Shown: positions 17,446 to 39,582, counted from the stretch's first letter. The stretch: DNA of 64,000 nt from an uncultured Thermodesulfobacteriota bacterium (GCA_964611295.1 CAZSWV010000002.1:74988-138987); one strand, 5' to 3'. Notes: generated by a model from the letters alone, not told the origin. A program made the numbers and translations.

Positions 17446-17475
17446 GTTGACATTTTTAAAAATTCCGTTTAAAAT
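17446..17475 (+). promoter_or_regulatory. Candidate sigma-70 promoter of katG
   Basis: TTGACA, an 18-nt spacer, then TAAAAT, about 25 nt upstream of the AGGAGG ribosome-binding site. Confidence 0.4.
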
Positions 17476-17497
17476 TAAAAAAACTACAAAAGGAGGC

Positions 17498-19699
17498 ATG
17501 ATGAAAGGGCAAACCCGGAAAAGGTGGATAACGGATTGGTGGCCTCAAAGGTTAAACCTTAAGGTGTTGCGTCAAAACTGCATTTGTTCTAATCCTTTCG
17601 GTCCTGATTATGACTATGCAGAAGAATTTGAGAGCCTTGATCTGTCGAAAGTAAAGGAAGACCTTCGAGAGATTATGACTAAATCTCAAGATTGGTGGCC
17701 AGCAGATTTTGGTCATTACGGCCCATTATTTATACGTCTAGCGTGGCACAGTGCGGGTAGTTATAGGGTTTTTGATGGAAGAGGAGGTGCAAGAAGCGGT
17801 GATATAAGGTTCCCTCCGCGCATCAACTGGCCTGACAATATGAATCTCGACAAAGCTCTGAGGTTGTTATGGCCTATTAAACAAAAATATGGGAGAAAGT
17901 TGTCTTGGGCAGATTTGATCATCCTTGCAGGTAACGTAGCGTTAGAGTCAATGGGAGTGAAAACCATTGGATTTGCAGGAGGCAGAGAGGATATTTGGGA
18001 GCCTGACGAAAGTGCAGATTGGGGGCCTGAACAAGAAATGCTTTCGGGTAAGGAAAGGTTCAAAGAGGGAGAATTGGAAAGGCCGTTTGCTGCTACTGAA
18101 ATGGGTTTGATATACGTAAACCCAGAAGGCCCAGAGGGAAACCCAGATCCCATGGCCTCCGCCAAACAGATAAGGGAGGCTTTTTCGCGTATGGGTATGA
18201 ACGATGAAGAAACGGTAGCCCTTATAGCAGGTGGGCATGCCTTTGGTAAATGTCATGGTGCATGTGCGGATACATACGTTGGACCAGATCCAAGTTCTTC
18301 ACCTATTGAGGAGCAAGGTCTTGGATGGAAAAATACTTACAAAAGTGGAAAAGGTCCCGATACTTTTACCTCTGGATTTGAGCTAACATGGTCACCTACA
18401 CCTACAAAGTTCGGTTTAAATTACTTACATATATTGTTTAACTATGAATGGGAATTGACCAAAAGCCCTGCAGGAAAATACCAATGGGTTGCTAAGGACG
18501 CTCCAGCTATTATCCCTGATGCATATGACCCACAAAAAAAACATCCTCCTATGATGCTAACTGCTGATTTGGCTTTGCGTTTTGATCCAGTCTATGCTGA
18601 AATAGCAAAACGTTATCTCCATAATCCAAAACAGTTCGAGGAAGCTTTCGCTAAAGCGTGGTTTAAACTTACTCACCGTGATCTTGGCCCTAAAGAGTGT
18701 TATCTTGGTCCAGAAGTCCCCGAGGAGACCTTTTTATGGCAAGATCCGCTTTCTTTGCGTGATTACGAGCTTATAGACGAAGAAGACATAGAAGAGTTGA
18801 AAAAAGTCCTTTCTGAGTCAGGTTTGGGGATCTCGGAGATGGTGTACACTGCGTGGTCTGCTGCCTCTACCTATAGGAATTCGGATAGACGCGGAGGGGC
18901 AAACGGAGCCCGTATACGACTTCTTCCCCAAAGGCAATGGGAAGTAAACCATCCTGATGATCTTATACGCATACTTAAGGTCTATGGAACCATCCAGGAG
19001 AAGTTCAATTCTGAACAGAAAAAGCGGAATACTGGGAAGAAGGTGTCAATGGCCGACCTTATCGTATTAGCTGGCTGTGTAGCAGTAGAGCTGGCAGCCC
19101 AAAAAGCAGGTTTCAATATAAAAATACCCTTTGTGCCTGGTAGAGTAGATGCTGAACAAGAACACATCGATTTGAACTTTTGGTCGTTATTGGAGCCTTT
19201 CGCTTGCGGTTTTCGTAATTACATAAAAGATCCTTCAAAAATAAAAGCAGAAGAAGCCCTTATCGATAAAGCACAATTGTTAACACTTAAGGTAACCGAA
19301 CTTGTAGTGTTAATAGGTGGTCTTAGAGTTTTAGGGGCTACCTATAAATATTCGAATTATGGTGTATTCACCGAAAAAAGAGGAGTTCTTACAAATGACT
19401 TTTTTGTAAACCTTTTAGATATGTCTGTTACATGGGAAGCGCTTGACAAGTACCGTTACCTTTTTAAGGGTATTGATAGAAAAACAGGCAGTGCGAAGTG
19501 GTTAGCTACTCGAGTAGATTTAATTTTTGGACACCATGATGAATTAAGGGCAATATGCGAGGTTTATGCTTCATCAGATGGGAAAGAAAAATTTATAGAA
19601 GATTTTGTAAAAACATGGACCAAGGTGATGCATCTTGATAGGTTTGACTTATGGCGGAACAACAGGAAACTTTATAAACAGCTTGTAGCAGGCATCTAA
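17498..19699 (+). CDS. katG: Catalase-peroxidase
   Basis: The start is set at ATGATG after AGGAGG. Typical KatG N-terminus [11 protein letters not shown], two-domain length. Confidence 0.92.
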
Positions 19700-22159: not shown

Positions 22160-22894
22160 ATGGATTATTTAGAAGAAGCCCGCAATCGACTTCTCAAGCT
22201 ACTGAGCGGAAAGATCGATATGGACCTTCCTGTAACGGTGAGTCCCCTTCCGATTAATGAAGCCATAGGTGAACCTCATATAGAGGACCTGCCACTCCTC
22301 AAGGGCAAAGAAAGGCTTTTGGAGGCTAAAATCAAAGACGCCAAAGGACAGGCCTTCACCGATTCCCCCAAATCCTTTAAAGGTAGTTTAAAAGAGGCAT
22401 TTTCTTTGGACATTGCTAAATGCGAAAATCGCGCAATTTTCGTTGCTACACTTAATGCTGTATTGAGATATTTAGGATTTATATCCAAAAGCATACATTG
22501 CAAAGATAATGCGCCATTAAGATGTGCTTTTGAAATTCTAAATTTAGTGAAACCATTTAGAAAAATTGGAATAATTGGATTCCATCCTGCAATTGCTCAA
22601 GTTCTTGCGTCAAACGTTGGTGTAGATAATATAATGATAACAGATCTTGATAAAGAAAACATAGGAAAAGTAAAGTTTGGAATTGAAATTTTGGATGGAG
22701 AGCGATATACAGATAAGTTGATATCAGAAGCACAAATTGTATTGCTAACAGGTACAACTTTTATTAATGGGACTTTTAGTTATATTTTTGAAAAGATATC
22801 TATGACTCAAAAACCATATTATGTTTACGGAATAACAGCATCAGGAATATGCCGTTTATTGTCGCTTAATCACGTGTGTCCTTATGGCTATTAA
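22160..22894 (+). CDS. Uncharacterised Rossmann-fold protein (DUF364/DUF4213-like, putative metal-chelation domain)
   Basis: 244-aa ORF beginning 2 nt after the efp stop. C-terminal Rossmann-like motif KIGIIGFHP. Confidence 0.5.
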   Translation: MDYLEEARNRLLKLLSGKIDMDLPVTVSPLPINEAIGEPHIEDLPLLKGKERLLEAKIKDAKGQAFTDSPKSFKGSLKEAFSLDIAKCENRAIFVATLNAVLRYLGFISKSIHCKDNAPLRCAFEILNLVKPFRKIGIIGFHPAIAQVLASNVGVDNIMITDLDKENIGKVKFGIEILDGERYTDKLISEAQIVLLTGTTFINGTFSYIFEKISMTQKPYYVYGITASGICRLLSLNHVCPYGY

Positions 22895-26823: not shown

Positions 26824-27247
26824 ATCTTATTACAAAGTTTTCACCGATTTGAAAAGCATATTGTCCTAGTTGGTAAAAGGCAAGACGTGAAATCTTTGCG
26901 GGAAATTTCCTATCTTTAACTTTACAATAAGGTATCCCCTTGGAACTTAAATAAAATGTGTCTAAGTCAAGTATTTCTTCTGTTCCATCATTAAGGTGTA
27001 TTTTAAAAACGTCATCTTTTTTTTCGATCCATTTAACGATAAAAACGGTGTCTTCTACTTCAACAGGTTCTTTATACCCCTCCCACTCAATCCAATAATT
27101 ACCTTTATCATCTGTTCTTAAGTTGTTTAAAAATTCTTTTATGATATCCTTTCTAATTATTTCCTGATCGCAATAATACCAGCGGCCTTCGCTATCTACT
27201 CGAATTAAAGCCTTATCCTTCATCACCGAGCCTTTTTGATTTTTCAT
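26792..27247 (-). CDS. Hypothetical protein, about 143-151 aa
   Basis: ORF tightly coupled to proC. I recognise no family. Confidence 0.45.
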   Translation of the reverse strand: MKNQKGSVMKDKALIRVDSEGRWYYCDQEIIRKDIIKEFLNNLRTDDKGNYWIEWEGYKEPVEVEDTVFIVKWIEKKDDVFKIHLNDGTEEILDLDTFYLSSKGIPYCKVKDRKFPAKISRLAFYQLGQYAFQIGENFVIRFKGKDYILNK

Positions 27248-28007
27248 ATGCTGCGTAGATGGCTTCCATTATGGCTGCCCTTACTCCCCAGCGTTCCAAA
27301 ACAAACATCCCTTCCGCTGTAGTCCCTGCCGGGGAAGTAACCTCTTCCCTAAGAATAGCAGGATGTTTACCAAGTAACACCATTTTAGCAGTCCCCATTA
27401 CCGTTTGAGCCGACAATATCAGGGCGTCCTCTCTTTTTAATCCCAACCTAACCCCTGCTTCGACCATAGCTTCTATAAAGAGAGACACATATGCAGGACC
27501 ACTACCACTTAAGCCAGTTATCGCATCCATTTTGTTTTCTTCTACGATAATCACCTTCCCCATGGTACTAAGCAAAGAAACTACTTGATTGATATCTTCT
27601 TCTGATGCCTCCGTTCCTTTGCATACTGCAATCGCTCCTTCATTTACCAAAAGCGGGAGATTTGGCATTACACGTATAACCTTTGCATTTTTCTTCAGTA
27701 CTGAAATAATCTTCGATATCTTCAAACCTGCTATAACTGATACAATAATTTTTTTCTCTGTAATAAAGGGGCTTATTTCTTCAAGAACATCAATAGCTTC
27801 TTGAGGTTTAACAGCAATCCACACTATATCAGCTTTTTTCGCAATATGGGAATTGTTTTCATAAACCGATATACCGAGTTCTTCAGCTAAACGACACCGC
27901 TCTTTAGACTTATCTGATGCTATTATTTCCTCTTTTTTTAAGCTTCTTAAGAAACTATTAATAAGTGCTAACCCTATTTTCCCTATCCCAATAACACCTA
28001 CCACCAT
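27213..28007 (-). CDS. proC: Pyrroline-5-carboxylate reductase
   Basis: N-terminal motif VGVIGIGKIG and ProC-like length and C-terminus. Confidence 0.85.
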   Translation of the reverse strand: MVVGVIGIGKIGLALINSFLRSLKKEEIIASDKSKERCRLAEELGISVYENNSHIAKKADIVWIAVKPQEAIDVLEEISPFITEKKIIVSVIAGLKISKIISVLKKNAKVIRVMPNLPLLVNEGAIAVCKGTEASEEDINQVVSLLSTMGKVIIVEENKMDAITGLSGSGPAYVSLFIEAMVEAGVRLGLKREDALILSAQTVMGTAKMVLLGKHPAILREEVTSPAGTTAEGMFVLERWGVRAAIMEAIYAAYEKSKRLGDEG

Positions 28008-28050: not shown

Positions 28051-29790
28051 TTAGTATTTATATCCTCTTGAAGTGACCATTTTCGATTTTTTTATAAAAG
28101 TTTGGGAATTGCCAACTATTATAGTAGTATCCATCTCTATAGGGTAATTTTCTAACTCTACTAAACTTGTTATCCAAAATTTACATCCCTCTCGGTATGC
28201 TTTTTTTACTATTGCAACAGGTGTATTGGGTTTTTTATATTGAAGCAAAATTTCCTTTATTTCTTTTATCCTATCACGATTTTTGCTTCGAGGGTTTAAC
28301 AAAACCAATACAAAATCTGCAGCAGCTGCTTTCCTAAGCCTATCTTCTATAAGCTCCCATGGGACTAAACGATCGGATAAGCTAATGACCGAAAAATCGC
28401 CAATCAAAGGGGCTCCTACTAGAGAAGCTGCTGCATTAATGCTAGAAATACCAGGTATTATTTCCACATCTATGGTATGATCTTCAAGTAACTCAAATAC
28501 AATTCCAGCCATCCCGTAAACACCAGGATCACCTGCACTTACAATGCTTACTATTTTACCGCTTGCAGCCTCTTCTAGCGCTCTTTTAGCTCTTTCTACT
28601 TCATGGGTCATGCCGTACACAAGAAGTTTTTTGTCTTTAATGATAGGTTCTATCAATTTAACATAAGTACTATATCCTATTACCACATCAGACTCCCTTA
28701 AAGCCTTTACAGCCTGTGGAGTAATAAGCTCTAAATCACCTGGTCCAATTCCCACCACATAAAGCTTACCTTTTGGCCTAAACGCAACTTCAGCTAAAGC
28801 AAAAGTGACGTGATCAAAAACCCTCTTAGGAGCTATTAATACTCCTCCACTTGCTAAAAGAGCTGCTTGCTCTGAGAGTGAATCTATTCCTATGGCCTTC
28901 TTCACCTTATCAGAAGAGCTAACAGATTTTACCTTTCTTAATTCCTCTTCTGAATAACCAAGGATTTCCACTTTCAAAGCTTCCTTCAAAGAAACAATAA
29001 CTGGATGTTGTACTTTGCGTCTAAGTGTCGCTATAGCCTTGATAGCTTCAGGTAAAACTCCTAAAGAATCCAGCCATTTCTGCAATGTGACTTTAACATA
29101 TTCTGGATTTACTAAATCGTGAAAACCTATCCCAACAAAAAGATTTTGGGGGACAAACTGTACTTTACTTTCTAACGAAACAAATTTACGATTAGAAATC
29201 AATATGTCGGCTTTTTCTGGGTCTTCCACTTCTTCTATACCTTTTGGTAAATTAATGTGAACTTTTTTATCGACAAACGCTAAAAGTTTTCCATTATTCA
29301 ATAACTTTTCTTGTATCGATGGTAACTTTGATTTATTAATTATACGGAACCCCAATTTTTTAGCCCAAAGATCTAAAGCTTCAACTTCCCATAGGTCAGA
29401 GGAAGTTGATATAACAACTTGTGCTCCCAATAAGGTAGATATCTCATTTGCCAAGTGATTTGCTCCTGCTAAATGTCCTCCGCAGAGTGGTATAACAAAA
29501 TTACCTTTTTCATCGATTACTAACACTGCAGGGTCTTTCTCTTTGTCATGAAGAAGGCGTGCTATGATACGAACTACAATCCCTGTAGCCATTACAAAGA
29601 TCAAGAAGTTATTTTGTTTCCATAAAGAGTCTACTAGTTTCGGTTCTAATCTCCTAACATTGGCATTAGGATAAAAAGGTCTTAATTTTTCTATCAATTT
29701 ATAACCGCGGTCACTTATGTAAATAAACACTATATTTCCCTTATCGTGCTTCATGTTTTTTATTCCCATAAAGTTTGGACCTTTTCCCAA
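28051..29790 (-). CDS. cbiGH: CbiG-CbiH fusion (cobalt-precorrin-5A hydrolase / precorrin-3B C17-methyltransferase)
   Basis: CbiG-like N-terminal portion of about 330 aa, then a tetrapyrrole methylase domain starting KLYVVGIGPGD. The start codon is uncertain (M1, M8 or M13). Confidence 0.8.
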   Translation of the reverse strand: MGKGPNFMGIKNMKHDKGNIVFIYISDRGYKLIEKLRPFYPNANVRRLEPKLVDSLWKQNNFLIFVMATGIVVRIIARLLHDKEKDPAVLVIDEKGNFVIPLCGGHLAGANHLANEISTLLGAQVVISTSSDLWEVEALDLWAKKLGFRIINKSKLPSIQEKLLNNGKLLAFVDKKVHINLPKGIEEVEDPEKADILISNRKFVSLESKVQFVPQNLFVGIGFHDLVNPEYVKVTLQKWLDSLGVLPEAIKAIATLRRKVQHPVIVSLKEALKVEILGYSEEELRKVKSVSSSDKVKKAIGIDSLSEQAALLASGGVLIAPKRVFDHVTFALAEVAFRPKGKLYVVGIGPGDLELITPQAVKALRESDVVIGYSTYVKLIEPIIKDKKLLVYGMTHEVERAKRALEEAASGKIVSIVSAGDPGVYGMAGIVFELLEDHTIDVEIIPGISSINAAASLVGAPLIGDFSVISLSDRLVPWELIEDRLRKAAAADFVLVLLNPRSKNRDRIKEIKEILLQYKKPNTPVAIVKKAYREGCKFWITSLVELENYPIEMDTTIIVGNSQTFIKKSKMVTSRGYKY

Positions 29791-30499
29791 AGGGTTCTTT
29801 TATTGCCTTTAAAGCTTCCCCGACGTATATAAGTGCTGTCCTTTTGATGGAATTTCTTTCAATAATCAGATCAAGCTCAGAAAGTTTTCCTAAGAAGACT
29901 TGTCCATCTGGCCAAGTTATTTTGTGCAGAACCGCTATCGGTGTGTCCCCCGGTAGTGTTTCTAACAAAGTTTCTTTGAGTGGTTTTACCAAAGAAGTGC
30001 TCAAGAAAAAGACCATGGTAGCCCTAAGTGAAGCTATTCGCTTTATTTCCTCTTTTGTAAGCCCTCCTGTATTTCCTTTAAACCTCAATAATATGACAGC
30101 TTCTGAAATCTCGGGTACCGTGAGTTCTACGGCCATAATCGCTGCTCCAGCCATGGCTGATGACACTCCAGGGATAACCTCATAAGGTATTCCCCTTGAT
30201 TTCAGCTCTTCCATCTGTTCTTGGATAGCGCTGTAAATACTCGGGTCACCGCTTACAAGCCTAACGACATCTTCACCCTTTTTAACGTGTTGTTCCATTA
30301 AATCAACTAACTCCTCCAAAGCCATCTTTGAAGAGTCAAAGAGCGTAGCTCTTATGCCCTTTATTATCTCAGGATTCAACAGACTACCAGGGTAGATGAC
30401 ACACGAAGCAGTTTCAAGAAGCCTCTTGGCTTTGACCGTTAGAAGCTCCGGATCTCCTGGACCCGCCCCTACGAAATATACTTTTCCTAACTTCTGCAC
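29741..30499 (-). CDS. cbiF: Cobalt-precorrin-4 C11-methyltransferase
   Basis: VYFVGAGPGDPELLTVKA and a CbiF-like length. Confidence 0.85.
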   Translation of the reverse strand: MQKLGKVYFVGAGPGDPELLTVKAKRLLETASCVIYPGSLLNPEIIKGIRATLFDSSKMALEELVDLMEQHVKKGEDVVRLVSGDPSIYSAIQEQMEELKSRGIPYEVIPGVSSAMAGAAIMAVELTVPEISEAVILLRFKGNTGGLTKEEIKRIASLRATMVFFLSTSLVKPLKETLLETLPGDTPIAVLHKITWPDGQVFLGKLSELDLIIERNSIKRTALIYVGEALKAIKEPFGKRSKLYGNKKHEAR

Positions 30500-31158
30500 T
30501 TTTTAACTACCACAAGAGAAAGGTAATCCTCGTCGTTATCTTCTAATGCCTCTAATCCCTCCCATATCTTTTGTTCGGGTAAGGTAGCCCTCTTAATGTA
30601 AAAAACCCTATAACGGTCAACGTCGATAAACTCCTTCAAATCCTTTATCTTACCTTTAACTTTTAAGAACACAAGGGTATCAAAATCGTTTATGTAAGTG
30701 CTTAAATTTTCACAGTATAAAACAGGGATAAGGGCAAGTTTTTCTTCACCTAGAACCAAAGGAAGTGGAATAGCACAAGCAGCAGCTGTAAAAGAACTAA
30801 CACCTGGTATTATTTCTACCGAAACTTTTTCCCTCAAATGATCGTAAATCCAAAAAAAAGTACAGTATAAGGAAGGATCGCCCAAGGTAACGTAAGTCCC
30901 TGTTTTAAAACGTTCTAACTCTTTAAGGATGACTTCCGAAGCCTTTGTAAGATGGACTTTTGGGTTTTGGGCCTTCATTGGAAATTCCAACAATACAACT
31001 TTTTGGCCTTTTAAAAATCCTCTTATGATCTCTAAAGCTCTACTATGCCCCTTTGTGGACGGACAAAAGACCACAGGGGCTTCTTCAAGGACCTTTCTGC
31101 CCTTAAGGGTTATAAGCTCAGGATCTCCCGGGCCTACCCCTACTACGTAAAGTTTCAC
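30487..31158 (-). CDS. cbiL: Cobalt-precorrin-2 C20-methyltransferase
   Basis: LYVVGVGPGDPELITLKG. The start forms an ATGA overlap with the upstream gene. Confidence 0.8.
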   Translation of the reverse strand: MKLYVVGVGPGDPELITLKGRKVLEEAPVVFCPSTKGHSRALEIIRGFLKGQKVVLLEFPMKAQNPKVHLTKASEVILKELERFKTGTYVTLGDPSLYCTFFWIYDHLREKVSVEIIPGVSSFTAAACAIPLPLVLGEEKLALIPVLYCENLSTYINDFDTLVFLKVKGKIKDLKEFIDVDRYRVFYIKRATLPEQKIWEGLEALEDNDEDYLSLVVVKKCRS

Positions 31159-32396
31159 CGTTTCCCCCTTATTACAAATACTGGGTTTAAAGCTTTAAAG
31201 CCCTTTTTGGTCCCAATGGGTTTGAGCCTAACTACGTTGACCTGCACCACATCGAGCTCGAAACCACATCCTTCAAAGCACTTTAAGGCTTCTGAAAAGG
31301 TCTCCACTGTCACAGCTGTAGTGACCACAACCTTAAGGCGTTCGATTTTGGTCAGTGTCCTTAATATTTCACCCAATTTTCCACCTGTCCCCCCTATGAA
31401 AACCCTATGTGGGGCTTCAAGCCCCATAAGGCATTCAGGAGCTTCACCTTTTATTACGATTAAATTGTCTAGACCAAACTTTTCCTTATTTTCCAACAAG
31501 GACTCAATGTCTCCCTTCTCAACAGCATAAACCTTAAGGGAGCGACTCAGTCTTGCCAACTCTACACTTATAGCTCCTGATCCAGCTCCTATGTCCCATA
31601 CTATACCCCTCCAAGGGGGTCTTAACTTATGGATGACAATAGCTCGTAACTCATCTTTCGTTATCATGCTCATTTTGTGATATATTTCGCTTTCCTCTAG
31701 ACCTATGATCGGTCCTCCAGGCTCTTCATGCGTTACGATTACAAAATGGGGATCTTCAATCTCCCACTTAAGGACCTCGTCTGCCGTTCCTTTCATCACC
31801 TTGAAATCGCTGTCCCCAAGCTTTTGGAATACAAAAAAAATGAGCCTTCCAGAAATAGTGTTTTTTAAAAAGTTTGCTAAGAACTTAGCATTTTTATTTG
31901 AGTCGGTAAGTACCGCCACTTTACCTTCTTCTTCCAAAACTCTTACTACTGCTTCTAGGGCAATTCCTTTGCCATGTAGACTTATAGTAGTTATACCGTG
32001 CCAGGGCTTTTTTATTATGCTAAGACCTATATTTAAACAAGAAACATCAGGCAAGATTTCGATTTTTTCCTCTCCTAACTCTTTAATAGCTTTTTCCGCT
32101 ATGCCAAAATACAAAGGATCCCCCGAAGCCAAAATTACAACATTTCCTTTGTGTAAAAAGGACGAAACTTTCGTGAAAAGCGTAGCTATATCTTGAACTT
32201 CGTACAGTTTGTTTTTTACTTTGTCATATTCCTTATACGATTTGAATATTTCATGTGAACGCGGAAGAGCAAAAATCACATCTGCCTCCTCAACGATTTT
32301 AAGAGCATCTCCGTCCAGAGGTTTGAAACCAATCCCTATGACAAAAACTTTATGTTTCTCTGTAACTAAGGAGATATATCTCCATGATGTATCCAT
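31155..32396 (-). CDS. cbiET: CbiE-CbiT fusion (cobalt-precorrin-6Y C5,C15-methyltransferase, decarboxylating; CobL-like)
   Basis: N-terminal tetrapyrrole methylase, then a C-terminal SAM methyltransferase with IVWDIGAGSGAISVE. Confidence 0.8.
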   Translation of the reverse strand: MDTSWRYISLVTEKHKVFVIGIGFKPLDGDALKIVEEADVIFALPRSHEIFKSYKEYDKVKNKLYEVQDIATLFTKVSSFLHKGNVVILASGDPLYFGIAEKAIKELGEEKIEILPDVSCLNIGLSIIKKPWHGITTISLHGKGIALEAVVRVLEEEGKVAVLTDSNKNAKFLANFLKNTISGRLIFFVFQKLGDSDFKVMKGTADEVLKWEIEDPHFVIVTHEEPGGPIIGLEESEIYHKMSMITKDELRAIVIHKLRPPWRGIVWDIGAGSGAISVELARLSRSLKVYAVEKGDIESLLENKEKFGLDNLIVIKGEAPECLMGLEAPHRVFIGGTGGKLGEILRTLTKIERLKVVVTTAVTVETFSEALKCFEGCGFELDVVQVNVVRLKPIGTKKGFKALNPVFVIRGKR

Positions 32397-33087
32397 GTTT
32401 TTCCCTCAAGGAACGTCTCAGTTTTATCAGTTGGTCTTTTACTTCGACCAACCTTCCTGAAAAAACCGTCTCTTTCTCGGTGCCAAGATAAGCCCCCCAA
32501 TAAATCCAAATATTTGGATCATTAATAAAGCGGAAACTTTCGTAGTTATCAAGAAATACAACGGTATTATCGCGGATTTCCTTTTTTTTCCTCATCACAC
32601 GCGGAGTGGTCAAAACGACTGATCCGGCTATATCGTTTAAGGATATTTTATGTTTAGCAGAAAGAAGCTGGATAGACGAAATTCCAGGAATTACTTCAAA
32701 ATGAATTGGTATAATTGTGGAAAGATAACGTAGTATCTCTATATAACCATCGTAAAGAGAAGGATCTCCTAAGACCAAAATACCAGCTTCTTCAATTTCT
32801 TGAATGGCACTTAATAACAATTTTGCTTTGTGTTTTCTCCATTCTTTAACCGAATCTACATAAGGCAACTCTGTTGGTCTCTGCCCGAAATCTAATCGTA
32901 TCAGTTCATAATCTTTTTGAGGACGTAAATGATTTAGGATTCTTTCTCGTAATAAAGTAAGGTGTTCCTTTTCACCCTTTTTATCAGGGATAATGAAATA
33001 CTGTAATTTTTTAATTAAGTCACAAGCTTCAAGGGTCAAATATTTAGGGTCACCTGGTCCTATGCCTATTATATAAACCTTCTTCAT
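32350..33087 (-). CDS. cobF: CobF-like precorrin-6A synthase (deacetylating) type tetrapyrrole methylase
   Basis: IIGIGPGDPKYLT at the N-terminus. The C-terminal motifs IYWGAYLGT...SGRLVEVKD...IMEIYLL are characteristic of CobF as far as I recall. Confidence 0.6.
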   Translation of the reverse strand: MKKVYIIGIGPGDPKYLTLEACDLIKKLQYFIIPDKKGEKEHLTLLRERILNHLRPQKDYELIRLDFGQRPTELPYVDSVKEWRKHKAKLLLSAIQEIEEAGILVLGDPSLYDGYIEILRYLSTIIPIHFEVIPGISSIQLLSAKHKISLNDIAGSVVLTTPRVMRKKKEIRDNTVVFLDNYESFRFINDPNIWIYWGAYLGTEKETVFSGRLVEVKDQLIKLRRSLREKHGYIMEIYLLSYRET

Positions 33088-33938
33088 TTTTCATTTATAG
33101 GAAATACGCCCTTCAAATGTTCTAACCAAATCCTTATTATCCTATTGCTCTCTGCAAGTCCTCTCAGCAGAGGTACTACTTTAAAACCTTCCTTTTCGAG
33201 TATGGACTTCCAACTGCTTGGATCTTCACCAGCCATGTCGTTTAAGACGTGATCTCCCGCAACAGCCATGAATGGTATGAGGTATACTTTCTTTACTTTA
33301 TTAATACGCAACTTGGGTATTATTTCCTCAAATTTAGGCCATCCTTCTACGGTAGCTAAAAATACGTTTGGGTCCTTTTGGTTAAGAACATAGGCTATTG
33401 CTACATACAAGTTGCCTGCGGGATGAGAGGTGCCATGTCCCATAAAAATGACACCATCTTTTGATGTCCTTTCCTTTGGGAGTTCCTCCAGGAGTATCTG
33501 AGCCACGTGTTCCAAATCTTCGTAAGAAGAGAGCAAAGGTGGAGAAACCACTATGTATTTCAACTTGTTTGACATCTTGGAAAACAATTCTGCGCTCCTC
33601 TTTAACTCATGGTATTCCTCACCGGGTATTACATGAAGGGATAATATTCCTATTTCTTCAACCCCTTCCTCTAGCATACGACAAAGGGCCATTTCAGGAG
33701 AGTCAACGTTAACCCCCTGCTCCCTTAGCTTTTCCCTGACCATCCTCGACGTATAGGCCCAACGGACGCTGGCCTCGGGGAATTCACCCTTAACCACTCG
33801 ATCCACCGCGTCGTAAACTTTTCTCGCTTCAGGAACACTGGTCCCAAAGGCAACGATCAATATGCCTTTTTTTGAGGTACTATGGCATATACCTATAACA
33901 CAAAGAACAAAAAAACTCACTATAACCAACACCCTCAT
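33084..33938 (-). CDS. cbiK: Sirohydrochlorin cobaltochelatase CbiK with an N-terminal signal peptide (periplasmic CbiK(P)-type)
   Basis: Hydrophobic leader MRVLVIVSFFVLCVIGICHS, then a CbiK fold with the metal-binding His residues. Confidence 0.75.
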   Translation of the reverse strand: MRVLVIVSFFVLCVIGICHSTSKKGILIVAFGTSVPEARKVYDAVDRVVKGEFPEASVRWAYTSRMVREKLREQGVNVDSPEMALCRMLEEGVEEIGILSLHVIPGEEYHELKRSAELFSKMSNKLKYIVVSPPLLSSYEDLEHVAQILLEELPKERTSKDGVIFMGHGTSHPAGNLYVAIAYVLNQKDPNVFLATVEGWPKFEEIIPKLRINKVKKVYLIPFMAVAGDHVLNDMAGEDPSSWKSILEKEGFKVVPLLRGLAESNRIIRIWLEHLKGVFPINEK

Positions 33939-33941
33939 ACT

Positions 33942-34547
33942 CTACCCCTCCTTTTGATTTTTAACAATTTTCAATAAAGCATTTACCACAGCAGCTGTTG
34001 CTGCTGATCCTCCTTTACGACTCAAGTTTGTTATAAATGGAAAATCTTGCTTACTTAAAATAATTTTGGCCTCCAACGCTTTAATGAAACCCACAGGCAT
34101 GCCTATTATTATTTTATCTTTTATCTTATTTACATTAAACAACTCAATTGCTGATAACAATGCAGTAGGCGAATTACCGATAGCGACAATTCCGATTTCC
34201 TGTCCTTTTTCAAAAAAAGCTACTCGTATAGCTTCTTCACACATAGTTCCAGAAGCAGTACTTACTTTATCAAGGTAGCATATAACCTCTATATCTGAGG
34301 ATAAATTTTTAGAAATACCTGCTTCAAGCATTTTTACGTCTACCAGAATTGCTTTTTTCTTTAATAGAGCATCTATGGCTACTGCAATTGCTTTGGGATG
34401 AAAGACCATAGTGTATCGGAATTCTGGATCGGCTGTGGCATGGATGACCCTTTTTATAATCTCTTTCTGTTCAAAAGGTATTCCTTCGAAATCAATTTCT
34501 CTTTCTATGAGTTCCAAGCTCTCTTTTTCTATTTGTTCACCACCCAT
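33942..34547 (-). CDS. cbiC: Cobalt-precorrin-8 methylmutase
   Basis: CbiC/CobH family features and length (201 aa). Confidence 0.8.
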   Translation of the reverse strand: MGGEQIEKESLELIEREIDFEGIPFEQKEIIKRVIHATADPEFRYTMVFHPKAIAVAIDALLKKKAILVDVKMLEAGISKNLSSDIEVICYLDKVSTASGTMCEEAIRVAFFEKGQEIGIVAIGNSPTALLSAIELFNVNKIKDKIIIGMPVGFIKALEAKIILSKQDFPFITNLSRKGGSAATAAVVNALLKIVKNQKEG

Positions 34548-34558
34548 GTGAAAAACTC

Positions 34559-35344
34559 CTAAAGGACATAGGGTACTATTACGGAAAACCCGTTGGTTTT
34601 TATGGAGTACACCTTTATCCCATAGACCTCTTCGATAAGATCTTCAGTTATGACTTCGGAAGGGGCTCCTTGTACCACGATTTCTCCTTTGTTTAATACC
34701 AAGACCCAATCGCCAAAAAACAGAGCCAAGTTCGGATCGTGTAAGCTAATTAAAACTCCTTTGCCCTCGTTATGTGAAAACTCCCTTATTTTAGACAAAA
34801 CCGTCCATTGGTTTTTAAAGTCCAAATGTGAAGTCGGCTCATCGAGTAGCACATAAGAAGCCCCTTGGGCAATGGCCCTTGCAAGGAGGGTCAATTGTCT
34901 TTCGCCTCCGCTTACCTTAGTATAGGTTTTTTCCCCCAAGTGCCCTATTCCAAGCATTTCCAAAGCCCTCTTGGCGATAAGAAGGTCTTTGTCTCCGGGG
35001 GTGGAGAAAACACCAAGGTGAGATACCCTCCCCATAAGTACGATTTCAAGGACTTTATAAGGAAAAGAAGGCTCGTGATCTTGTGGTACGTAGGAAATCC
35101 TTTTCGCCCTCTCCTTATAGGTTAAGGAGTTCACACTTTTACCATCTATCTTTATCGTCCCTTTTTGAGGTTTCCATATGCCTACAAGACATCTAAACAA
35201 GGTGCTTTTCCCAGAACCATTTGGGCCAAGTAAGACCGTGATTTCTCCTTTACGAACTCGGAAAGATACATCCCTCAGGATTTCCTGAGGTTGCCCCTTG
35301 TGTCTGAAAGTTAAGCCTTCAACTTCTAACATCAGCTTTCCCAA
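34559..35344 (-). CDS. ABC transporter ATP-binding protein, FepC/BtuD/HmuV type
   Basis: Walker A GPNGSGKST, signature LSGGERQ, Walker B LLDEPTSHLD. Confidence 0.88.
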   Translation of the reverse strand: MGKLMLEVEGLTFRHKGQPQEILRDVSFRVRKGEITVLLGPNGSGKSTLFRCLVGIWKPQKGTIKIDGKSVNSLTYKERAKRISYVPQDHEPSFPYKVLEIVLMGRVSHLGVFSTPGDKDLLIAKRALEMLGIGHLGEKTYTKVSGGERQLTLLARAIAQGASYVLLDEPTSHLDFKNQWTVLSKIREFSHNEGKGVLISLHDPNLALFFGDWVLVLNKGEIVVQGAPSEVITEDLIEEVYGIKVYSIKTNGFSVIVPYVL

Positions 35345-36333
35345 GTTTCTTTTCCCTTTTTCCTCATCAGATAAACGAAAAACGGAGCACCTGTAAGGGC
35401 CGTTATTATACCTACAGGAACGTCAAAACCCACAAAAGTCCTCGAAAGAGTATCTGCTCCTATCATAAAGGCGGCACCTCCAAATAACGAAAGAGGCAAA
35501 AGAACACTATGCTCTGGTCCAACCATCATCCTTACAATATGTGGCACCATTAACCCAACCCATCCAATAATTCCACATGTTGAAGTAGCAACAGCTACAG
35601 AAAAAGTCGAGAATAAGATAAATATCATCCGATCTCTCTTCACATTTACACCTAACGCATAAGCTTCTTCTTCTGAAAGACTCATTACGTTTAACCTCCA
35701 TCTCATAAGCACTATTGGCAATATTCCTACTATGGTTCCTATCAAAGCTATTTTAAAGTTACGCCAATCAGAAAGAGAAAAACTGCCCATTGTCCAAAAA
35801 ATTATACCTTGTAATTTATGGGGATCCACTAATATTTTTACAATAGAAACCAGAGCTGTGAAAAAAGCTGAAACTATTACACCTGAAAGCACCAATGGAA
35901 GTCTAGAAATTTCTTGTTGACTTTTTGCTACCATATAAGTAAGTGATACTGCTAAAAGTCCAAATATAAAAGCCATAGTTTGAACTGACCAAGATGGTAA
36001 AAACCCTATAGTTATAGCACATCCAAAAGCTGCTCCTGCTGAAATCCCTAAGATGTAAGGGTCGACCAAAGGATTCCGTAGCAGTCCTTGTAATACTGCC
36101 CCGGATCCTGCCAAAGAAGCCCCTACTGTTGCTGCCATTAATATTCGCGGTAGGCGTATATCTAAGATAATTGCCTTTTCTGGAATATTACTAATACCGT
36201 TATAGTTGGTGATTCCCTGGAATAATATCTTAATTACTGTAATTGGAGGGATATCATAAGTTCCTATAAAAAGGGAAAACAACCCTATTGCGAAGGGAGA
36301 AAGTATTATAAAGGACGTTTTAATCCTTTTCAT
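35332..36333 (-). CDS. FecCD-family ABC permease (BtuC/HmuU-like)
   Basis: Polytopic membrane protein with FecCD-type features. Confidence 0.85.
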   Translation of the reverse strand: MKRIKTSFIILSPFAIGLFSLFIGTYDIPPITVIKILFQGITNYNGISNIPEKAIILDIRLPRILMAATVGASLAGSGAVLQGLLRNPLVDPYILGISAGAAFGCAITIGFLPSWSVQTMAFIFGLLAVSLTYMVAKSQQEISRLPLVLSGVIVSAFFTALVSIVKILVDPHKLQGIIFWTMGSFSLSDWRNFKIALIGTIVGILPIVLMRWRLNVMSLSEEEAYALGVNVKRDRMIFILFSTFSVAVATSTCGIIGWVGLMVPHIVRMMVGPEHSVLLPLSLFGGAAFMIGADTLSRTFVGFDVPVGIITALTGAPFFVYLMRKKGKETWES

Positions 36334-37303
36334 ATGTTTTCACCTCTTGCCAAGATATGCTAAAAACCTTCTTGAAGAAAGCGTTCATTAGTTCTTGGAT
36401 TGTTGTACTTTCTATCCTTTCGAGGTGTAAATATTGATCCATCCACAAAGCCAATCCAATAATGGATGGTGACCATGTTTGTAGGTGGGGCATTCTGTAA
36501 ACCCTTTGGTTTTGTACTGCGCTGATCTTTTGCCATGCAGGATGTTTTAATATCCACTCTGGACCGTAACTTGTACTTCTCCAAAGGAATATAGTATCAG
36601 GATTCCATCCGATTATGCGTTCAAGGGAAACGTTTGCGTATTTTACTCCTAAGCCGCACGCTACATTTTCAGCGTTAAGGCACCTGAGCACGTCGTTAAT
36701 TATGCCTTGATCAGCGATTACCCGCGTTGGAGGATCGCTGAGGATGAGCACCCTTTTGTGGTTACCTTTTTTGTTTTCTAAATAGGACAGAAACCTCCTC
36801 ATCTCCATAATGATCTCCTTGGCTCTTTCTTCTTTTGCAAACAGCCTTCCGTGGACTTCTATAAGTTCAAAGAGGTCCTTTAATCCGTCAGGCCAGAAAG
36901 CCATGACTTTTATCCCTTTGTTTTCAAGGAATTGAAGAAGTTCGGGGTTGTTTGCCCACATGATGACTACGTCTGGGTTAAGTTGGGTTAGTTTTTCTAG
37001 ATCTATTTGCCATGGTGTTCCTATGATTGGCCTTCTCAAAGAAGGGTTTTTACGCAATAGAGCTTTAAAAACGGGAGAAAACTCGTAGGCATTTTGAGAT
37101 ATGCCTACCACGCGGTCCATTGCTCCAAGGGAACAAACGACCTCGTAGGTCATAGTAACCACGGCCCTTTTAACGGGGACTTCTAAGGTTATCCTTTTCC
37201 CTCTTGAGTCCCAAAAGGTCTCTTCTTTTCCCCAAAGCCGTCCATGGAAACTTGAGGCAATCAAGTACAATGCTGACAATAAGATGAAAGATTTGAGCCT
37301 CAT
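36320..37303 (-). CDS. Periplasmic substrate-binding protein (BtuF/HmuT-like)
   Basis: Signal peptide MRLKSFILLSALYLIASS. The start is re-called at ATG 37303, because the track's GTG start at 37336 lies inside the riboswitch terminator hairpin. Confidence 0.75.
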   Translation of the reverse strand: MRLKSFILLSALYLIASSFHGRLWGKEETFWDSRGKRITLEVPVKRAVVTMTYEVVCSLGAMDRVVGISQNAYEFSPVFKALLRKNPSLRRPIIGTPWQIDLEKLTQLNPDVVIMWANNPELLQFLENKGIKVMAFWPDGLKDLFELIEVHGRLFAKEERAKEIIMEMRRFLSYLENKKGNHKRVLILSDPPTRVIADQGIINDVLRCLNAENVACGLGVKYANVSLERIIGWNPDTIFLWRSTSYGPEWILKHPAWQKISAVQNQRVYRMPHLQTWSPSIIGLALWMDQYLHLERIESTTIQELMNAFFKKVFSISWQEVKTYEKD

Positions 37304-37304
37304 T

Positions 37305-37560
37305 AATAAAAAAACCCCACGTTTGTGGGGCTGCACCCGTTTTTCTCTTCGCCCCTTCCCCTATCCCTCGAGGGGATTAGGGTTATATGGTGGGCAGGTC
37401 TTCCGGCTCCCGGATCTTCCTACTCCCCGCACCTTCCCAGGGCCAGAGGCCCCAGTGGCCTACTGCGGGTTTCGTCCCCGGTCACGGCGGCGGGACCGCG
37501 GGGGATTTTCACCCCACTTCCCTTTTAAGCCCACAATGGGCACCCACCTATATTTTATTT
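37305..37560 (-). promoter_or_regulatory. Cobalamin (B12) riboswitch: aptamer at about 37405-37555, plus an expression-platform hairpin and U-tract at 37305-37330
   Basis: The minus-strand RNA reads GGUGCC...AAAAGGGAAGUGGGGUGAAAAUCCCCCGCGGUCCCGCC...AGGCCACUGG, which contains the B12 box GCCACUG. It is followed by CCCCACAAACGUGGGG and a U7 run just before the btuF ATG. The region is a GC-rich island in AT-rich DNA. Confidence 0.85.
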
Positions 37561-37618
37561 TCCCTCTCAATGAGTTTATGGTCAACAGTGTAGTCTTCTT
37601 GATAGAATCTTTTAGCTC

Positions 37619-38194
37619 ATGGGACTTTTGGTTGAACTTGACCTCAGAGGGAAAAGAGTCCTCTTAATAGGAGGAGGTTGTATAGCGACGAGGAGATTTT
37701 TAAAACTATACCAAGCCCGTCCTTCGCTATTAAGGGTAGTAGCAAAAAGGATACAGGAGGAAATCAAAAAAGTGGCTTTTGTCACCCCATGGATTGAACT
37801 TTTTGAAAGGGATTTTCAAGAAGAAGACCTAGAGGGCTTCCATATGGTATTGGCTGCAACAGATGACGCGGATCTCAATCGTAGGATAGCCTTTTTGGCA
37901 AGGGGAAAAGGTATGTGGGTCAACGTGGCAAATGATAGAGGACTTTCTGATTTTTTCTTCCTTGCTACTGTGGAAAGACCACCTTTGTCTATAGGGGTTT
38001 CTTCTTCAGGAACGCTTCCCGCCTTTTCAAGTGCCCTTAAGGAAGCTTTAGAATCAACTCTCCCATGGGATGAGCTTGTCCGTGAACTCCATCTACTGGT
38101 TATGCAAAGAGGCAAAATTCCTTCTTCGGAAATGCGCAAAAGATGTTTAAATAGGATACTTTCAGTGTGGCCTAAATTTACAAAGGACAAATAA
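37619..38194 (+). CDS. sirC: Precorrin-2 dehydrogenase / sirohydrochlorin ferrochelatase (SirC / CysG N-domain-like)
   Basis: LRGKRVLLIGGG Rossmann N-terminus, length 191 aa. Confidence 0.75.
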   Translation: MGLLVELDLRGKRVLLIGGGCIATRRFLKLYQARPSLLRVVAKRIQEEIKKVAFVTPWIELFERDFQEEDLEGFHMVLAATDDADLNRRIAFLARGKGMWVNVANDRGLSDFFFLATVERPPLSIGVSSSGTLPAFSSALKEALESTLPWDELVRELHLLVMQRGKIPSSEMRKRCLNRILSVWPKFTKDK

Positions 38195-38196
38195 AT

Positions 38197-39582
38197 TTAC
38201 TCTTTCTTAAAGAGGGTGGAAAAATTTGTCTCTAACGATAGACAATCAAAAAAAGGGGGAAGTATGAACTTTTCTTTTTTTTCCATAACTTTTTCCCCTT
38301 TCTCTCCGAACCTATCAAGGTAAGCTTCTAAGCAGACTTGATCACCAAAGACAAAGGTCGTAAAAGTATCCAGGTGTTCTTCTATTATCTTAGAAACGTT
38401 CTTACCAGAGGGAAGTACTTCTAAGAAATCTAAAAAATACACTTCAGCTCCAAGATCGCTTAAAAACATGTAAGTTGCTTTGTCCTTCATAGGAAGTCCT
38501 ATTTTCCTACCTTTTAGTCCATCTTTTTTTACATCGATCTCGAAAAGTTTATAGGGTATACCTTTTTCGAACAATATGGGTTTGCCATCTGCAGGACAGA
38601 GGATCTCAAATCTCATTTCCCTCAGGTCCAAGCCTAGACGATTAAAGGCCCTCAGCATAGGGGTCAGTAAGGCCCTTCTTGGAATAGCCAGGAAATCCAA
38701 GCCTTTTATTCTCTGTATCTCCTCCTTACAGGATGCCTTTGGCTCGTATTTCAAAACAGGAAAGACAAAGACCTTCGCCCCTTTTTCCTTTAGAAAGCTT
38801 GAAAGGAACAGCCCTTCTTCCTTAGGGGTTACTAACAAAATTTCCTTCCCTAACAGAGGACGTTTTTCAAACCAATTAAGTTTAAATCTGAGGTTACAGA
38901 CATCCCCGAGGACGATTAAAGAGGGAGACACTAGGTCGATACTAGACATTTCCTTTAGCTTGCCTTCTATTACCTTCTGCCTTGTTGTAGCCCCCCACGT
39001 TATAGCTGTAACAGGTGTATCAGGATCCATTCCAAGCGCAAGGAGACGCTGCAATGTTTCTTTCGCATTTTTAGCCCCCATAAATAATACCACCGTTCCT
39101 TTAAATTGAGCTATGGAAGCCCAGTTAATTGCTTGGTCTTTTTGAGGATCTTCATGACACGTAGCAGCGCAAAAACAAGAAGATATACGCCGATGAGTCA
39201 AAGGGATTCCTGCATAAGCAGGAACTGCATAAAGAGAACTTACACCTGGTACTACTTCAACATCAATATCTTTTTCAACTAGATACTCAACTTCTTCTCC
39301 TCCCCGACCAAATATAAAGGGATCTCCTCCTTTAAGTCTTACTACAAGTTTACCTTCCTTTGCTTTTTGTTCCATTACATAATTTATTTGTTCTTGAGTG
39401 ACATTGCGACGTTTACCGACAGGGATAAGTTCGGCTTCTTCTTTACAGTGAACCAAAATTTCATGAGGAATAAGGTCATCATAAAGCACAACGTCTGCCT
39501 TTTTTAACACTTCTAATCCTCTACAGGTAATCAGACCTGGATCTCCTGGACCTGCCCCTACTATGTAAACTTTTCCAGCCAC
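38197..39582 (-). CDS. cobA-hemD: Uroporphyrinogen-III C-methyltransferase fused to uroporphyrinogen-III synthase (CobA-HemD)
   Basis: VYIVGAGPGDPGLIT SUMT domain, then a HemD-like C-terminal portion of about 220 aa. Confidence 0.82.
   Translation of the reverse strand: MAGKVYIVGAGPGDPGLITCRGLEVLKKADVVLYDDLIPHEILVHCKEEAELIPVGKRRNVTQEQINYVMEQKAKEGKLVVRLKGGDPFIFGRGGEEVEYLVEKDIDVEVVPGVSSLYAVPAYAGIPLTHRRISSCFCAATCHEDPQKDQAINWASIAQFKGTVVLFMGAKNAKETLQRLLALGMDPDTPVTAITWGATTRQKVIEGKLKEMSSIDLVSPSLIVLGDVCNLRFKLNWFEKRPLLGKEILLVTPKEEGLFLSSFLKEKGAKVFVFPVLKYEPKASCKEEIQRIKGLDFLAIPRRALLTPMLRAFNRLGLDLREMRFEILCPADGKPILFEKGIPYKLFEIDVKKDGLKGRKIGLPMKDKATYMFLSDLGAEVYFLDFLEVLPSGKNVSKIIEEHLDTFTTFVFGDQVCLEAYLDRFGEKGEKVMEKKEKFILPPFFDCLSLETNFSTLFKKE

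Follow-up and report, generated by a model that had tools for sequence, protein, structure and literature searches.

A leader-bearing CbiK(P)-type chelatase within a riboswitch-headed corrin operon that opens with an ABC importer

A stretch of 64,000 nucleotides from an uncultured Thermodesulfobacteriota bacterium (GCA_964611295.1 CAZSWV010000002.1:74988-138987), the whole of which we call the window, carries a minus-strand corrin operon in which the gene for a CbiK chelatase with an N-terminal hydrophobic leader stands among genes for an ATP-binding cassette (ABC) importer and for cytoplasmic cbi enzymes (Table 1). An earlier reading of this DNA, the original prediction, had described a periplasmic CbiK(P) arrangement at 33084-37303 on the minus strand. 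That span indeed holds exactly five open reading frames (ORFs), for a binding protein, a FecCD permease, an ATPase, CbiC and CbiK, and we conclude that the chelatase is very probably an exported protein of the CbiK(P) type with an intact metal site.

The minus-strand genes form a single riboswitch-headed operon. From the binding protein through CbiG-CbiH, adjacent genes overlap or are separated by gaps of at most 11 nt; cbiC and cbiK lie 3 nt apart, cbiK and the gene for the CobF-like methylase overlap by 4 nt, and the order of the whole operon is kept in two relatives at 75% identity. The original prediction had cbiK directly downstream of the importer genes, and the two do share an operon, but cbiC intervenes between the ATPase gene and cbiK. 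It made no mention of the cobalamin riboswitch (120 bits) and the terminator hairpin that head the operon. The RF00174 riboswitch is upstream of, and on the same strand as, the genes it regulates, and is followed by the hairpin (37313-37332), the best terminator-like site of the region, which ends 9 nt 5' of the first ATG. The binding protein starts at the ATG at 37303, an alternative GTG at 37336 lying inside the terminator stem. The start of the ATPase is probably the ATG at 35332, with a 1-nt overlap with the permease stop, where the mechanical ORF starts at a TTG at 35344; the ATPase orthologues in loci L001 and L002 have 257 amino acids.

Table 1. Features of the corrin operon and its upstream neighbours, in window coordinates.
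Feature	Position	Strand	Basis and remarks
Uroporphyrinogen-III C-methyltransferase (CobA/SirA), makes precorrin-2	38197..39582	-	TIGR01469, 278 bits
CysG-N-terminal/SirC-like precorrin-2 dehydrogenase, divergent	37619..38194	+	TIGR01470, 102 bits vs cut-off 62
Promoter-like site TTGACC-17-GAAAAT	37557..37585	-	Consensus scan, 9/12 matches; weak pattern match only; just upstream of riboswitch
Cobalamin (adenosylcobalamin, AdoCbl) riboswitch aptamer	37376..37561	-	Rfam RF00174, 120.1 bits vs gathering score 31.5; full-length model match 1-189
Intrinsic-terminator hairpin and U-tract (riboswitch expression platform)	37313..37332	-	8 bp stem with 5 GC pairs, then TTTTTATT
Peripla_BP_2 binding protein, predicted exported, NiuB/CeuE-like	36320..37303	-	Pfam PF01497; own signal peptide MRLKSFILLSALYLIASSFHG
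FecCD-family permease (type II ABC importer)	35332..36333	-	PF01032, 310 bits
ABC ATPase	34559..35332	-	PF00005
CbiC (cobalt-precorrin-8 methylmutase)	33942..34547	-	PF02570, 181 bits; between ATPase and cbiK
CbiK(P)-type class II chelatase, 284 aa	33084..33938	-	PF06180, 246 bits
CbiK leader, residues 1-20	33879..33938	-	Sequence rules: n-region MR, hydrophobic core V3-C18, candidate cleavage after C18 or S20
CobF-like tetrapyrrole methylase	32350..33087	-	TIGR02434 CobF, 222.8 bits vs cut-off 195.8; 4-nt overlap with cbiK stop
CbiE-CbiT fusion	31155..32396	-	TIGR02467 and TIGR02469 domains
CbiL (cobalt-factor II C20 methyltransferase), consumer of chelatase product	30487..31158	-	TIGR01467, 196 bits vs cut-off 163
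CbiF	29741..30499	-	TIGR01465, 263.7 bits vs cut-off 259.65
CbiG-CbiH fusion, last operon gene	28051..29790	-	TIGR01466 at 296 bits, and CbiG models

The first 22 residues of CbiK (MRVLVIVSFFVLCVIGICHSTS) comprise Arg2, a 16-residue hydrophobic core and the small residues C18 and S20, and the Pfam CbiK domain begins at residue 24. Sequence rules give two candidate sites for signal peptidase I, with -3/-1 contexts of G-I-C or C-H-S. The AlphaFold2 model sets residues 2-16 apart from the core as a helix, the linker between them being of low confidence. A Tat signal was rejected because twin arginine is absent from the leader, as was a lipoprotein signal, Cys13 and Cys18 having no lipobox; the relative P0003 does have L-S-A-C, but this is not general. 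We infer that the leader is a Sec signal peptide, and by analogy with CbiK(P) of Desulfovibrio vulgaris the protein would work outside the cytoplasm.

Evidence for the start codon is good. A strong Shine-Dalgarno sequence (AAGGAGGGG) lies 7-8 nt 5' of the ATG at 33938, the next in-frame ATG is codon 66, within the conserved fold, and the sole nearer alternative, a TTG at codon 27, is CTG in the relative L002. Both 75%-identical relatives keep the Shine-Dalgarno sequence, the ATG and a hydrophobic leader, although the leader sequence has diverged, with 3- and 6-nt in-frame insertions or deletions (indels); a 99%-identical variant has a one-residue in-frame insertion within the leader. Signal peptides evolve in this way. 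The hydrophobic leader that the original prediction described is thus real, being translated from a well-placed ATG and conserved in relatives and in most homologues, and the mis-called start that it had named as its own undoing fails on the same observations.

Among solved structures the best match to CbiK is the periplasmic CbiK of D. vulgaris (2xvx; 243 bits, 45% identity), against 166 bits for Porphyromonas gingivalis FetB and 153 bits for the cytoplasmic CbiK of Salmonella (1qgo). The AlphaFold2 model, with a predicted local distance difference test (pLDDT) score of 93, superposes in Foldseek on 2xvz and 2xvx with a template-modelling (TM) score of 0.96 (root-mean-square deviation 1.1-1.2 Å), versus 0.93 for 1qgo. 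Together with the riboswitch-controlled operon and its importer, these matches uphold the proposed CbiK(P)-type arrangement in a cbi operon. Window residue numbers equal D. vulgaris numbers plus 14, the chain numbering of 2xvx being the published one, and the predicted metal ligands H168, E198 and H230 align to His154, Glu184 and His216. H110 aligns to His96, which Romao and colleagues in 2011 and Lobo and colleagues in 2017 are said to have assigned as a haem ligand of D. vulgaris CbiK(P); Salmonella CbiK has Glu at this position and FetB has Asp. The second haem ligand, His103, is not kept and is Glu117 in the window, and the tetramer contacts Arg54 and Glu76 have equivalents by alignment in R68 and E90.

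We aligned 207 homologue sequences (the top 120 database matches and those of the fetched loci), which include 198 unique full-length proteins, and 187 of these 198 (~94%) carry a hydrophobic leader. In 98 leader-bearing homologues small -3/-1 residues stand immediately before an (x)HG motif. More broadly, HG follows the hydrophobic core in 117 of the 187 leaders, usually as A-x-A and then (A/G)HGEK, which fits the start of the D. vulgaris mature chain; residue 1 of 2xvx lies about 10 residues before the first strand, in agreement with the predicted cleavage point before (x)HG. With (A/G)HGEK, the second residue of the predicted mature protein would be His, and the motif could serve as an N-terminal metal-binding tail. 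Where the family has this motif, the window leader is followed by HSTSKK.

A separate scoring of all 207 aligned sequences counted 198 as leader-bearing and 9 as leaderless, several of the latter merely cut at contig ends. The equivalents of the catalytic His154 and His216 are kept in 198 and 197, respectively, of the 198 leader-bearing sequences; a metal site so constant speaks for a family in which metal, and not haem alone, is still handled. The His96 equivalent is present in 174 of the 198, and also in eight of the nine scored as leaderless. The His103 equivalent is His in 42 of the 198 only, and so does not define the CbiK(P) family.

Control by B12 is widespread in the family. In the window, and likewise in 10 of 11 other loci that include the upstream region, Rfam places a cobalamin riboswitch ahead of cbiK, and an nhmmer profile seeded from the Rfam matches, applied to the 77 loci (one species each) with enough upstream sequence, detects one within 900 nt upstream of the leader-bearing cbiK in 66 species. 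Such near-universal control favours a function tied to cobalt or corrinoids over one tied to iron or haem, and with the prevalence of the leader and the invariant histidines it argues for a family that works for the cobalt/B12 economy and not for haem or iron uptake.

We took a census of gene context in 83 loci (L003-L086 minus L010, a duplicate of L006). The chelatase gene stands alone in 33; an ABC importer accompanies cbi genes in 20, typically in the order cbiK-FecCD-ATPase-binding protein-cbiL; and a TonB-dependent receptor is nearby in 16, five of which also have cbiZ, a corrinoid-salvage setting. Counted by strand, cbi genes lie within 9 kb on the same strand in 24 of the 83 loci, cbiL nearly always among them. 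Four of the loci with both importer and cbi genes (L028, L030, L075 and L084) lie within large cbi clusters, so that the combination of leader-bearing cbiK and importer within a cbi cluster recurs in sequence data. Four loci from the Bacteroidota Labilibaculum and Marinifilum (L015, L033, L040 and L047) have the order TonB receptor-CbiK-FecCD-ATPase; no binding protein was detected there with the window query, the riboswitch is about 3.9 kb upstream, before the receptor, and the layout resembles Iht/FetB of P. gingivalis.

The leaderless members show how a start can shift. The cbiK gene of L012 (9998-) has its own Shine-Dalgarno sequence before MKKAILL, and that of L019 retains a decayed leader upstream of an internal Met. 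A Met three residues before (A/G)ILL, in the column of window Ser22, occurs in 25 of the 207 sequences and is the start point of the leaderless members (MKKAILLVAFGTS). This subset, to which the window gene does not belong, might make exported and cytoplasmic isoforms from two starts. At L045 a leader-bearing CbiK (9893-10858) is followed by a tandem, diverged, leaderless CbiK paralogue (11129-12034), and predicted exported and cytoplasmic forms are thus encoded side by side.

The importer is not of the kind that had been supposed. The original prediction called the binding protein BtuF/HmuT-like, a description its scores contradict: the closest solved relative is CeuE/NiuB of Helicobacter pylori (101 bits, E 5.6e-28, residues 39-323), compared with 25 bits to BtuF structures, 27.8 to ShuT (2r7a) and 38.5 to IsdE. 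All NCBIfam matches of the binding protein fall far below their cut-offs (31.6 against 234 for the BtuF model), and the best NCBIfam model for the permease, BtuC (NF007081), gives 255 bits against a cut-off of 461. Identification of the binding protein as BtuF, or as a haem binder of the ShuT/HmuT/IsdE type, was rejected on these scores. Elsewhere in the family, the binding protein adjoining cbiK(P) in O. marinus resembles haem and B12 binders, and that of L005, a TonB-receptor/cbiZ locus, is clearly BtuF-like (93-106 bits). Against the cbiK(P) partners of Desulfobacterota the window binding protein scores at most 63 bits and the permease 180-220 bits; orthology with the Desulfovibrio cbiK(P)-linked importer was likewise rejected on scores.

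True relatives of the importer, with binding proteins at 29-38% identity and permeases at 390-460 bits, occur in loci that combine a TonB receptor, an ABC importer and CobN. A word-indexed search for relatives of the binding protein gave five proteins, and a metagenome scan with alignment revealed the family. The recurrent, uncharacterised metagenomic locus reads TonB-dependent receptor-binding protein-FecCD-ATPase-CobN-ChlI (MoxR-like)-ChlD (VWA) and is represented by L087, L092, L098-L102 and L109; the window-type importer stands beside CobN-ChlI-ChlD in at least eight loci, and no cobalamin riboswitch was found in these TonB/ABC/CobN loci. That its relatives stand beside CobN suggests a habitual partnership between this importer subfamily and a tetrapyrrole chelatase.

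Two characterised importers bear on the cargo. NiuBDE of H. pylori imports nickel and cobalt (PMC5140060), and CbtJKL of Sinorhizobium meliloti is a BtuF-like importer controlled by an AdoCbl riboswitch that carries Co(II) and not cobalamin (PMC7689651). Because NiuB is the closest relative, CbtJKL provides a precedent, and Pfam searches on the large ORFs found no other cobalt transporter in the 64-kb window, we rank cobalt first: by analogy the cargo is most likely cobalt or a small cobalt chelate, with a corrinoid next and haem last.

No second chelatase of the CbiK/CbiX kind was found nearby. A CbiK-family hidden Markov model run on all six-frame ORFs, and Pfam run on large ORFs, found no second CbiK/CbiX-like ORF in the 64-kb window, and no further chelatase was found in flanks of about 10 kb on each side, taken from contigs encoding identical end proteins (about 84 kb covered in all). 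The claim of the original prediction that this is the only cbiK of its operon therefore holds well beyond the operon. Immediately upstream, the divergent CysG-N-like protein scores 56 bits to CysG, 48 to SirC and 29 to Met8p among its solved relatives. CysG and Met8p chelate and SirC is not known to; from these similarities the protein is a candidate cytoplasmic chelatase.

We tentatively favour, with confidence just short of even, a reading in which the exported CbiK captures or recovers cobalt for the importer, another protein chelates in the cytoplasm, and the operon is repressed by B12. When adenosylcobalamin is plentiful, the riboswitch would let the terminator hairpin form and the operon would be off. 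When B12 is scarce, a single transcript would supply the type II ABC importer, the exported CbiK(P)-type chelatase and the cytoplasmic corrin enzymes of the early-cobalt-insertion (anaerobic) pathway. On the model of NiuBDE and CbtJKL, the importer would take up cobalt, either as Co(II) or in a small chelate, rather than cobalamin or haem, and the His/His/Glu site of periplasmic CbiK would capture cobalt, or recover it from metallo-tetrapyrroles, for that importer. Insertion of cobalt into sirohydrochlorin would take place in the cytoplasm, by the divergent CysG-N-like enzyme or by a CbiX or CbiK encoded elsewhere in the genome. The specific role of CbiK in cobalt acquisition we hold to be somewhat less likely than not.

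Several observations weigh against this reading. The chelatase gene is translationally coupled between genes for cytoplasmic pathway enzymes with no other chelatase within about 84 kb, as would be expected if CbiK were the pathway enzyme. Two lysines lie 3-6 residues past the candidate cleavage sites, which is unusual in Sec substrates and could slow export. The leaderless members L012 and L019 retain the riboswitch, and CobN, the chelatase that accompanies the related importers, is leaderless. SirC, about as close a relative of the CysG-N-like protein as CysG is, is not known to chelate, so that the latter protein is no more than a candidate chelatase, and the ligand of the binding protein is predicted solely from a similarity of about 100 bits.

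Much of this would be accommodated if CbiK were the sirohydrochlorin cobaltochelatase of the pathway, its N-terminus giving partial or slow export, and hence dual localisation, or tethering it to the membrane beside the importer; in the tethered version imported cobalt would pass straight to sirohydrochlorin and then to CbiL. We regard this as possible though on the unlikely side. It would account for the position of cbiK between cbiC and a C1-methylase-like gene (3-nt gap, 4-nt overlap), for the lack of a second CbiK/CbiX-like ORF within about 84 kb, for catalytic histidines that are invariant family-wide, for the same-strand cbi genes within 9 kb in 24 of 83 loci with cbiL nearly always among them, for leaderless orthologues under the same riboswitch, for the pairing of related importers with cytoplasmic CobN, and for the KK close behind the leader. 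Leaderless D. vulgaris CbiK(P) also reportedly complements an Escherichia coli cysG mutant, a result attributed to Lobo and colleagues in 2008, and this speaks on the same side. But leaders are present in ~94% of the family, canonical A-x-A sites among them, the positive n-region favours an N-in orientation with the domain outside, and 16 hydrophobic residues are few for a stable anchor in the membrane. In D. vulgaris, moreover, the orthologue is reported to be periplasmic (Lobo 2008 and 2017); it is so called, with Lobo 2008 cited, in PMC13065792 and PMC4063343.

A second alternative, which we consider unlikely, follows the proposal made for D. vulgaris CbiK(P): CbiK would be a periplasmic haem or tetrapyrrole carrier that hands haem or a corrinoid to the importer, its chelatase chemistry vestigial. 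In H110 the window has the His96 equivalent, which 174 of 198 leader-bearing sequences share, and it also has equivalents of Arg54 and Glu76; a TonB-dependent receptor stands beside the gene in 16 of 83 loci, five with cbiZ, the L005 binding protein being BtuF-like at 93-106 bits; the title of Lobo 2017, cited in PMC11124144, itself names an evolved haem-binding protein. However, the His103 equivalent is Glu in the window and His in 42 of 198 sequences only, the His96 equivalent is also found in eight of nine sequences scored as leaderless (several cut at contig ends), a pure carrier would have no need of the invariant metal-site histidines, regulation is by B12 and not by iron, and the window binding protein scores weakly against BtuF, ShuT and IsdE (25-38 bits). 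A bolder alternative is that insertion itself is extracytoplasmic: sirohydrochlorin would reach the periplasm, CbiK would metallate it, and the importer would return cobalt-sirohydrochlorin to CbiL. A single step would then account for the leader, for the invariance of the catalytic site and for the recurrent riboswitch-cbiK-ABC-cbiL unit, and also for the fact that neither a known cobalt transporter nor a second chelatase is found nearby; FecCD importers do carry tetrapyrrole-sized cargo. Rodionov 2004 described delta-proteobacteria of the cbiK type as having no known cobalt transporters (PMC545781), which fits the same scheme. Yet the binding protein is nearest to a metal-chelate binder, not a tetrapyrrole binder, and no sirohydrochlorin exporter is seen at the locus, nor is one known. 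D. vulgaris also has a cytoplasmic CbiK, which speaks against the scheme too; we think it very improbable. Hardly credible, lastly, is that the leader is an annotation artefact, with the real start downstream and an ordinary cytoplasmic CbiK. In its favour, a weak AAAGG stands before the TTG at codon 27, and Met occupies the start position of leaderless members (MKK-A/G-ILL) in ~10% of the wider family; but the window has Ser at that position, codon 27 is CTG in L002, and a strong Shine-Dalgarno sequence precedes the ATG at 33938, with the next ATG at codon 66 and the leader ORF staying open through in-frame indels.

It is improbable, on our estimate, that the exported CbiK is the only sirohydrochlorin cobaltochelatase of the organism, the first committed step of B12 synthesis then being carried out outside the cytoplasm or at the membrane face of the importer. 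Were this true, the importer would deliver cobalt-sirohydrochlorin, or cobalt directly, to CbiL; the locus would contain an extracytoplasmic step of cofactor biosynthesis, and the B12 riboswitch before leader-bearing cbiK genes in most species would be explained.

The nearest known system is CbiK(P) of D. vulgaris (DVU0650; PDB 2xvx/2xvy/2xvz), a class II chelatase with 45% identity, a near-identical fold and an N-terminal leader, whose His154/Glu184/His216, His96, Arg54 and Glu76 all have equivalents in the window CbiK. Unlike the D. vulgaris protein, the window CbiK has Glu at the His103 position and a post-leader linker that is five residues shorter and without (A/G)HGEK; and no counterpart of the cytoplasmic CbiK(C) of D. 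vulgaris was found for the window organism within about 84 kb. The two systems share a B12 riboswitch and a FecCD-type importer in one transcription unit, Rodionov 2004 having described for Desulfovibrio a riboswitch-controlled cbiK-FecCD-ATPase-binding protein-cbiL arrangement (PMC545781). In the window, by contrast, the importer comes first, cbiK is embedded among nine cbi functions, and the importer is of another subfamily, its binding protein giving at most 63 bits to Desulfobacterota partners.

Comparison with the importers alone gives a similar mixture. H. pylori NiuBDE (CeuE/FecDE) includes the closest solved relative of the window binding protein, with a FecCD permease and an ATPase, but it is under NikR, with no riboswitch and no chelatase partner, and the similarity amounts to about 100 bits. 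S. meliloti CbtJKL, compared by description, has the same regulatory logic of an importer under an AdoCbl riboswitch, but it is a standalone system outside a cbi operon and without an exported chelatase. The TonB receptor-ABC-CobN-ChlI-ChlD loci have an orthologous binding protein and permease beside a tetrapyrrole chelatase; they differ in that this chelatase is class I and leaderless, in having a TonB-dependent receptor, of which there is none in the window locus, and in having no cobalamin riboswitch. FetB/IhtB of P. gingivalis (PDB 9b86; 166 bits to the window CbiK) is likewise a CbiK homologue, linked to a locus for TonB-receptor/ABC uptake. It offers a precedent for the reading that we favour: described as a protein of the outer membrane, it is required for the production of Mn-protoporphyrin, and chelatase assays have been run on the recombinant form (PMC13065792). 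In contrast to the window protein FetB is a lipoprotein and has Asp at the His96 position, and its setting is one of haem and porphyrin, not a B12 operon.

The locus reveals no new kind of system. CbiK(P), its riboswitch and its ABC partner are already described, and the kind has been known since 2004-2008 (PMC545781; PMC13065792; PMC11124144); a 2024 paper notes that the physiological role of CbiK(P) has still not been established genetically (PMC11568245). The window varies from this kind in the importer subfamily, the position of cbiK within a full operon, the shorter linker without HGEK and the absence of His103. We suggest that the locus is a clean case that sharpens the CbiK(P) puzzle: the one chelatase of a complete, coupled, B12-repressed corrin operon is predicted to be exported and has an intact metal site, and the importer beside it has as its nearest characterised relative a transporter of nickel and cobalt. 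The family survey makes the link to cobalt and B12, rather than to haem, a testable one. For annotation, an importer of a cbi operon that is labelled BtuF-like may in fact carry cobalt, and a gene called cbiK need not stand for cobalt insertion in the cytoplasm.

The remaining genes of the operon and its surroundings have features of their own. The CobF-like methylase belongs to an otherwise anaerobic-type cbi operon; L001 and L002 have kept its gene, whereas the surveyed Desulfobacterota cbi clusters lack it. Neither cbiD nor cbiJ was found within about 84 kb, and the CobF-like methylase may be a non-orthologous replacement for CbiD. A proC gene (27213-28007, minus strand) directly follows cbiG/H, occupies the same position in L001 and L002, and passes TIGR00112. 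It is probably a separate unit because it has its own promoter-like site (28045-28017, strong, 11/12 matches); ProC as a substitute for the missing CbiJ was rejected, since the protein passes the proC equivalog model and its gene has this site. In the uroporphyrinogen-III methyltransferase (461 aa), methylase models match residues 1-240 only, and the C-terminal ~220 residues, where a HemD fusion might be expected, have no Pfam match.

Further away, about 5 kb past the end of the operon and directly after the gene for EF-P, is a DUF364 'putative heavy-metal chelation' protein (22160-22894, plus strand; PF04016, E 1.3e-9) with no NCBIfam match. A KatG-type catalase-peroxidase is encoded at 17447-19699 (plus strand). 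EF-P, ComEC, SecA and Ffh indicate a bacterium, and the labels that NCBI metagenome-assembled genomes attach to identical proteins disagree (Bathyarchaeia archaeon versus WOR-3 bacterium); at least one of those genomes is probably mis-binned or mislabelled. A reverse gyrase (57796-61200, plus strand) marks the host as a thermophile.

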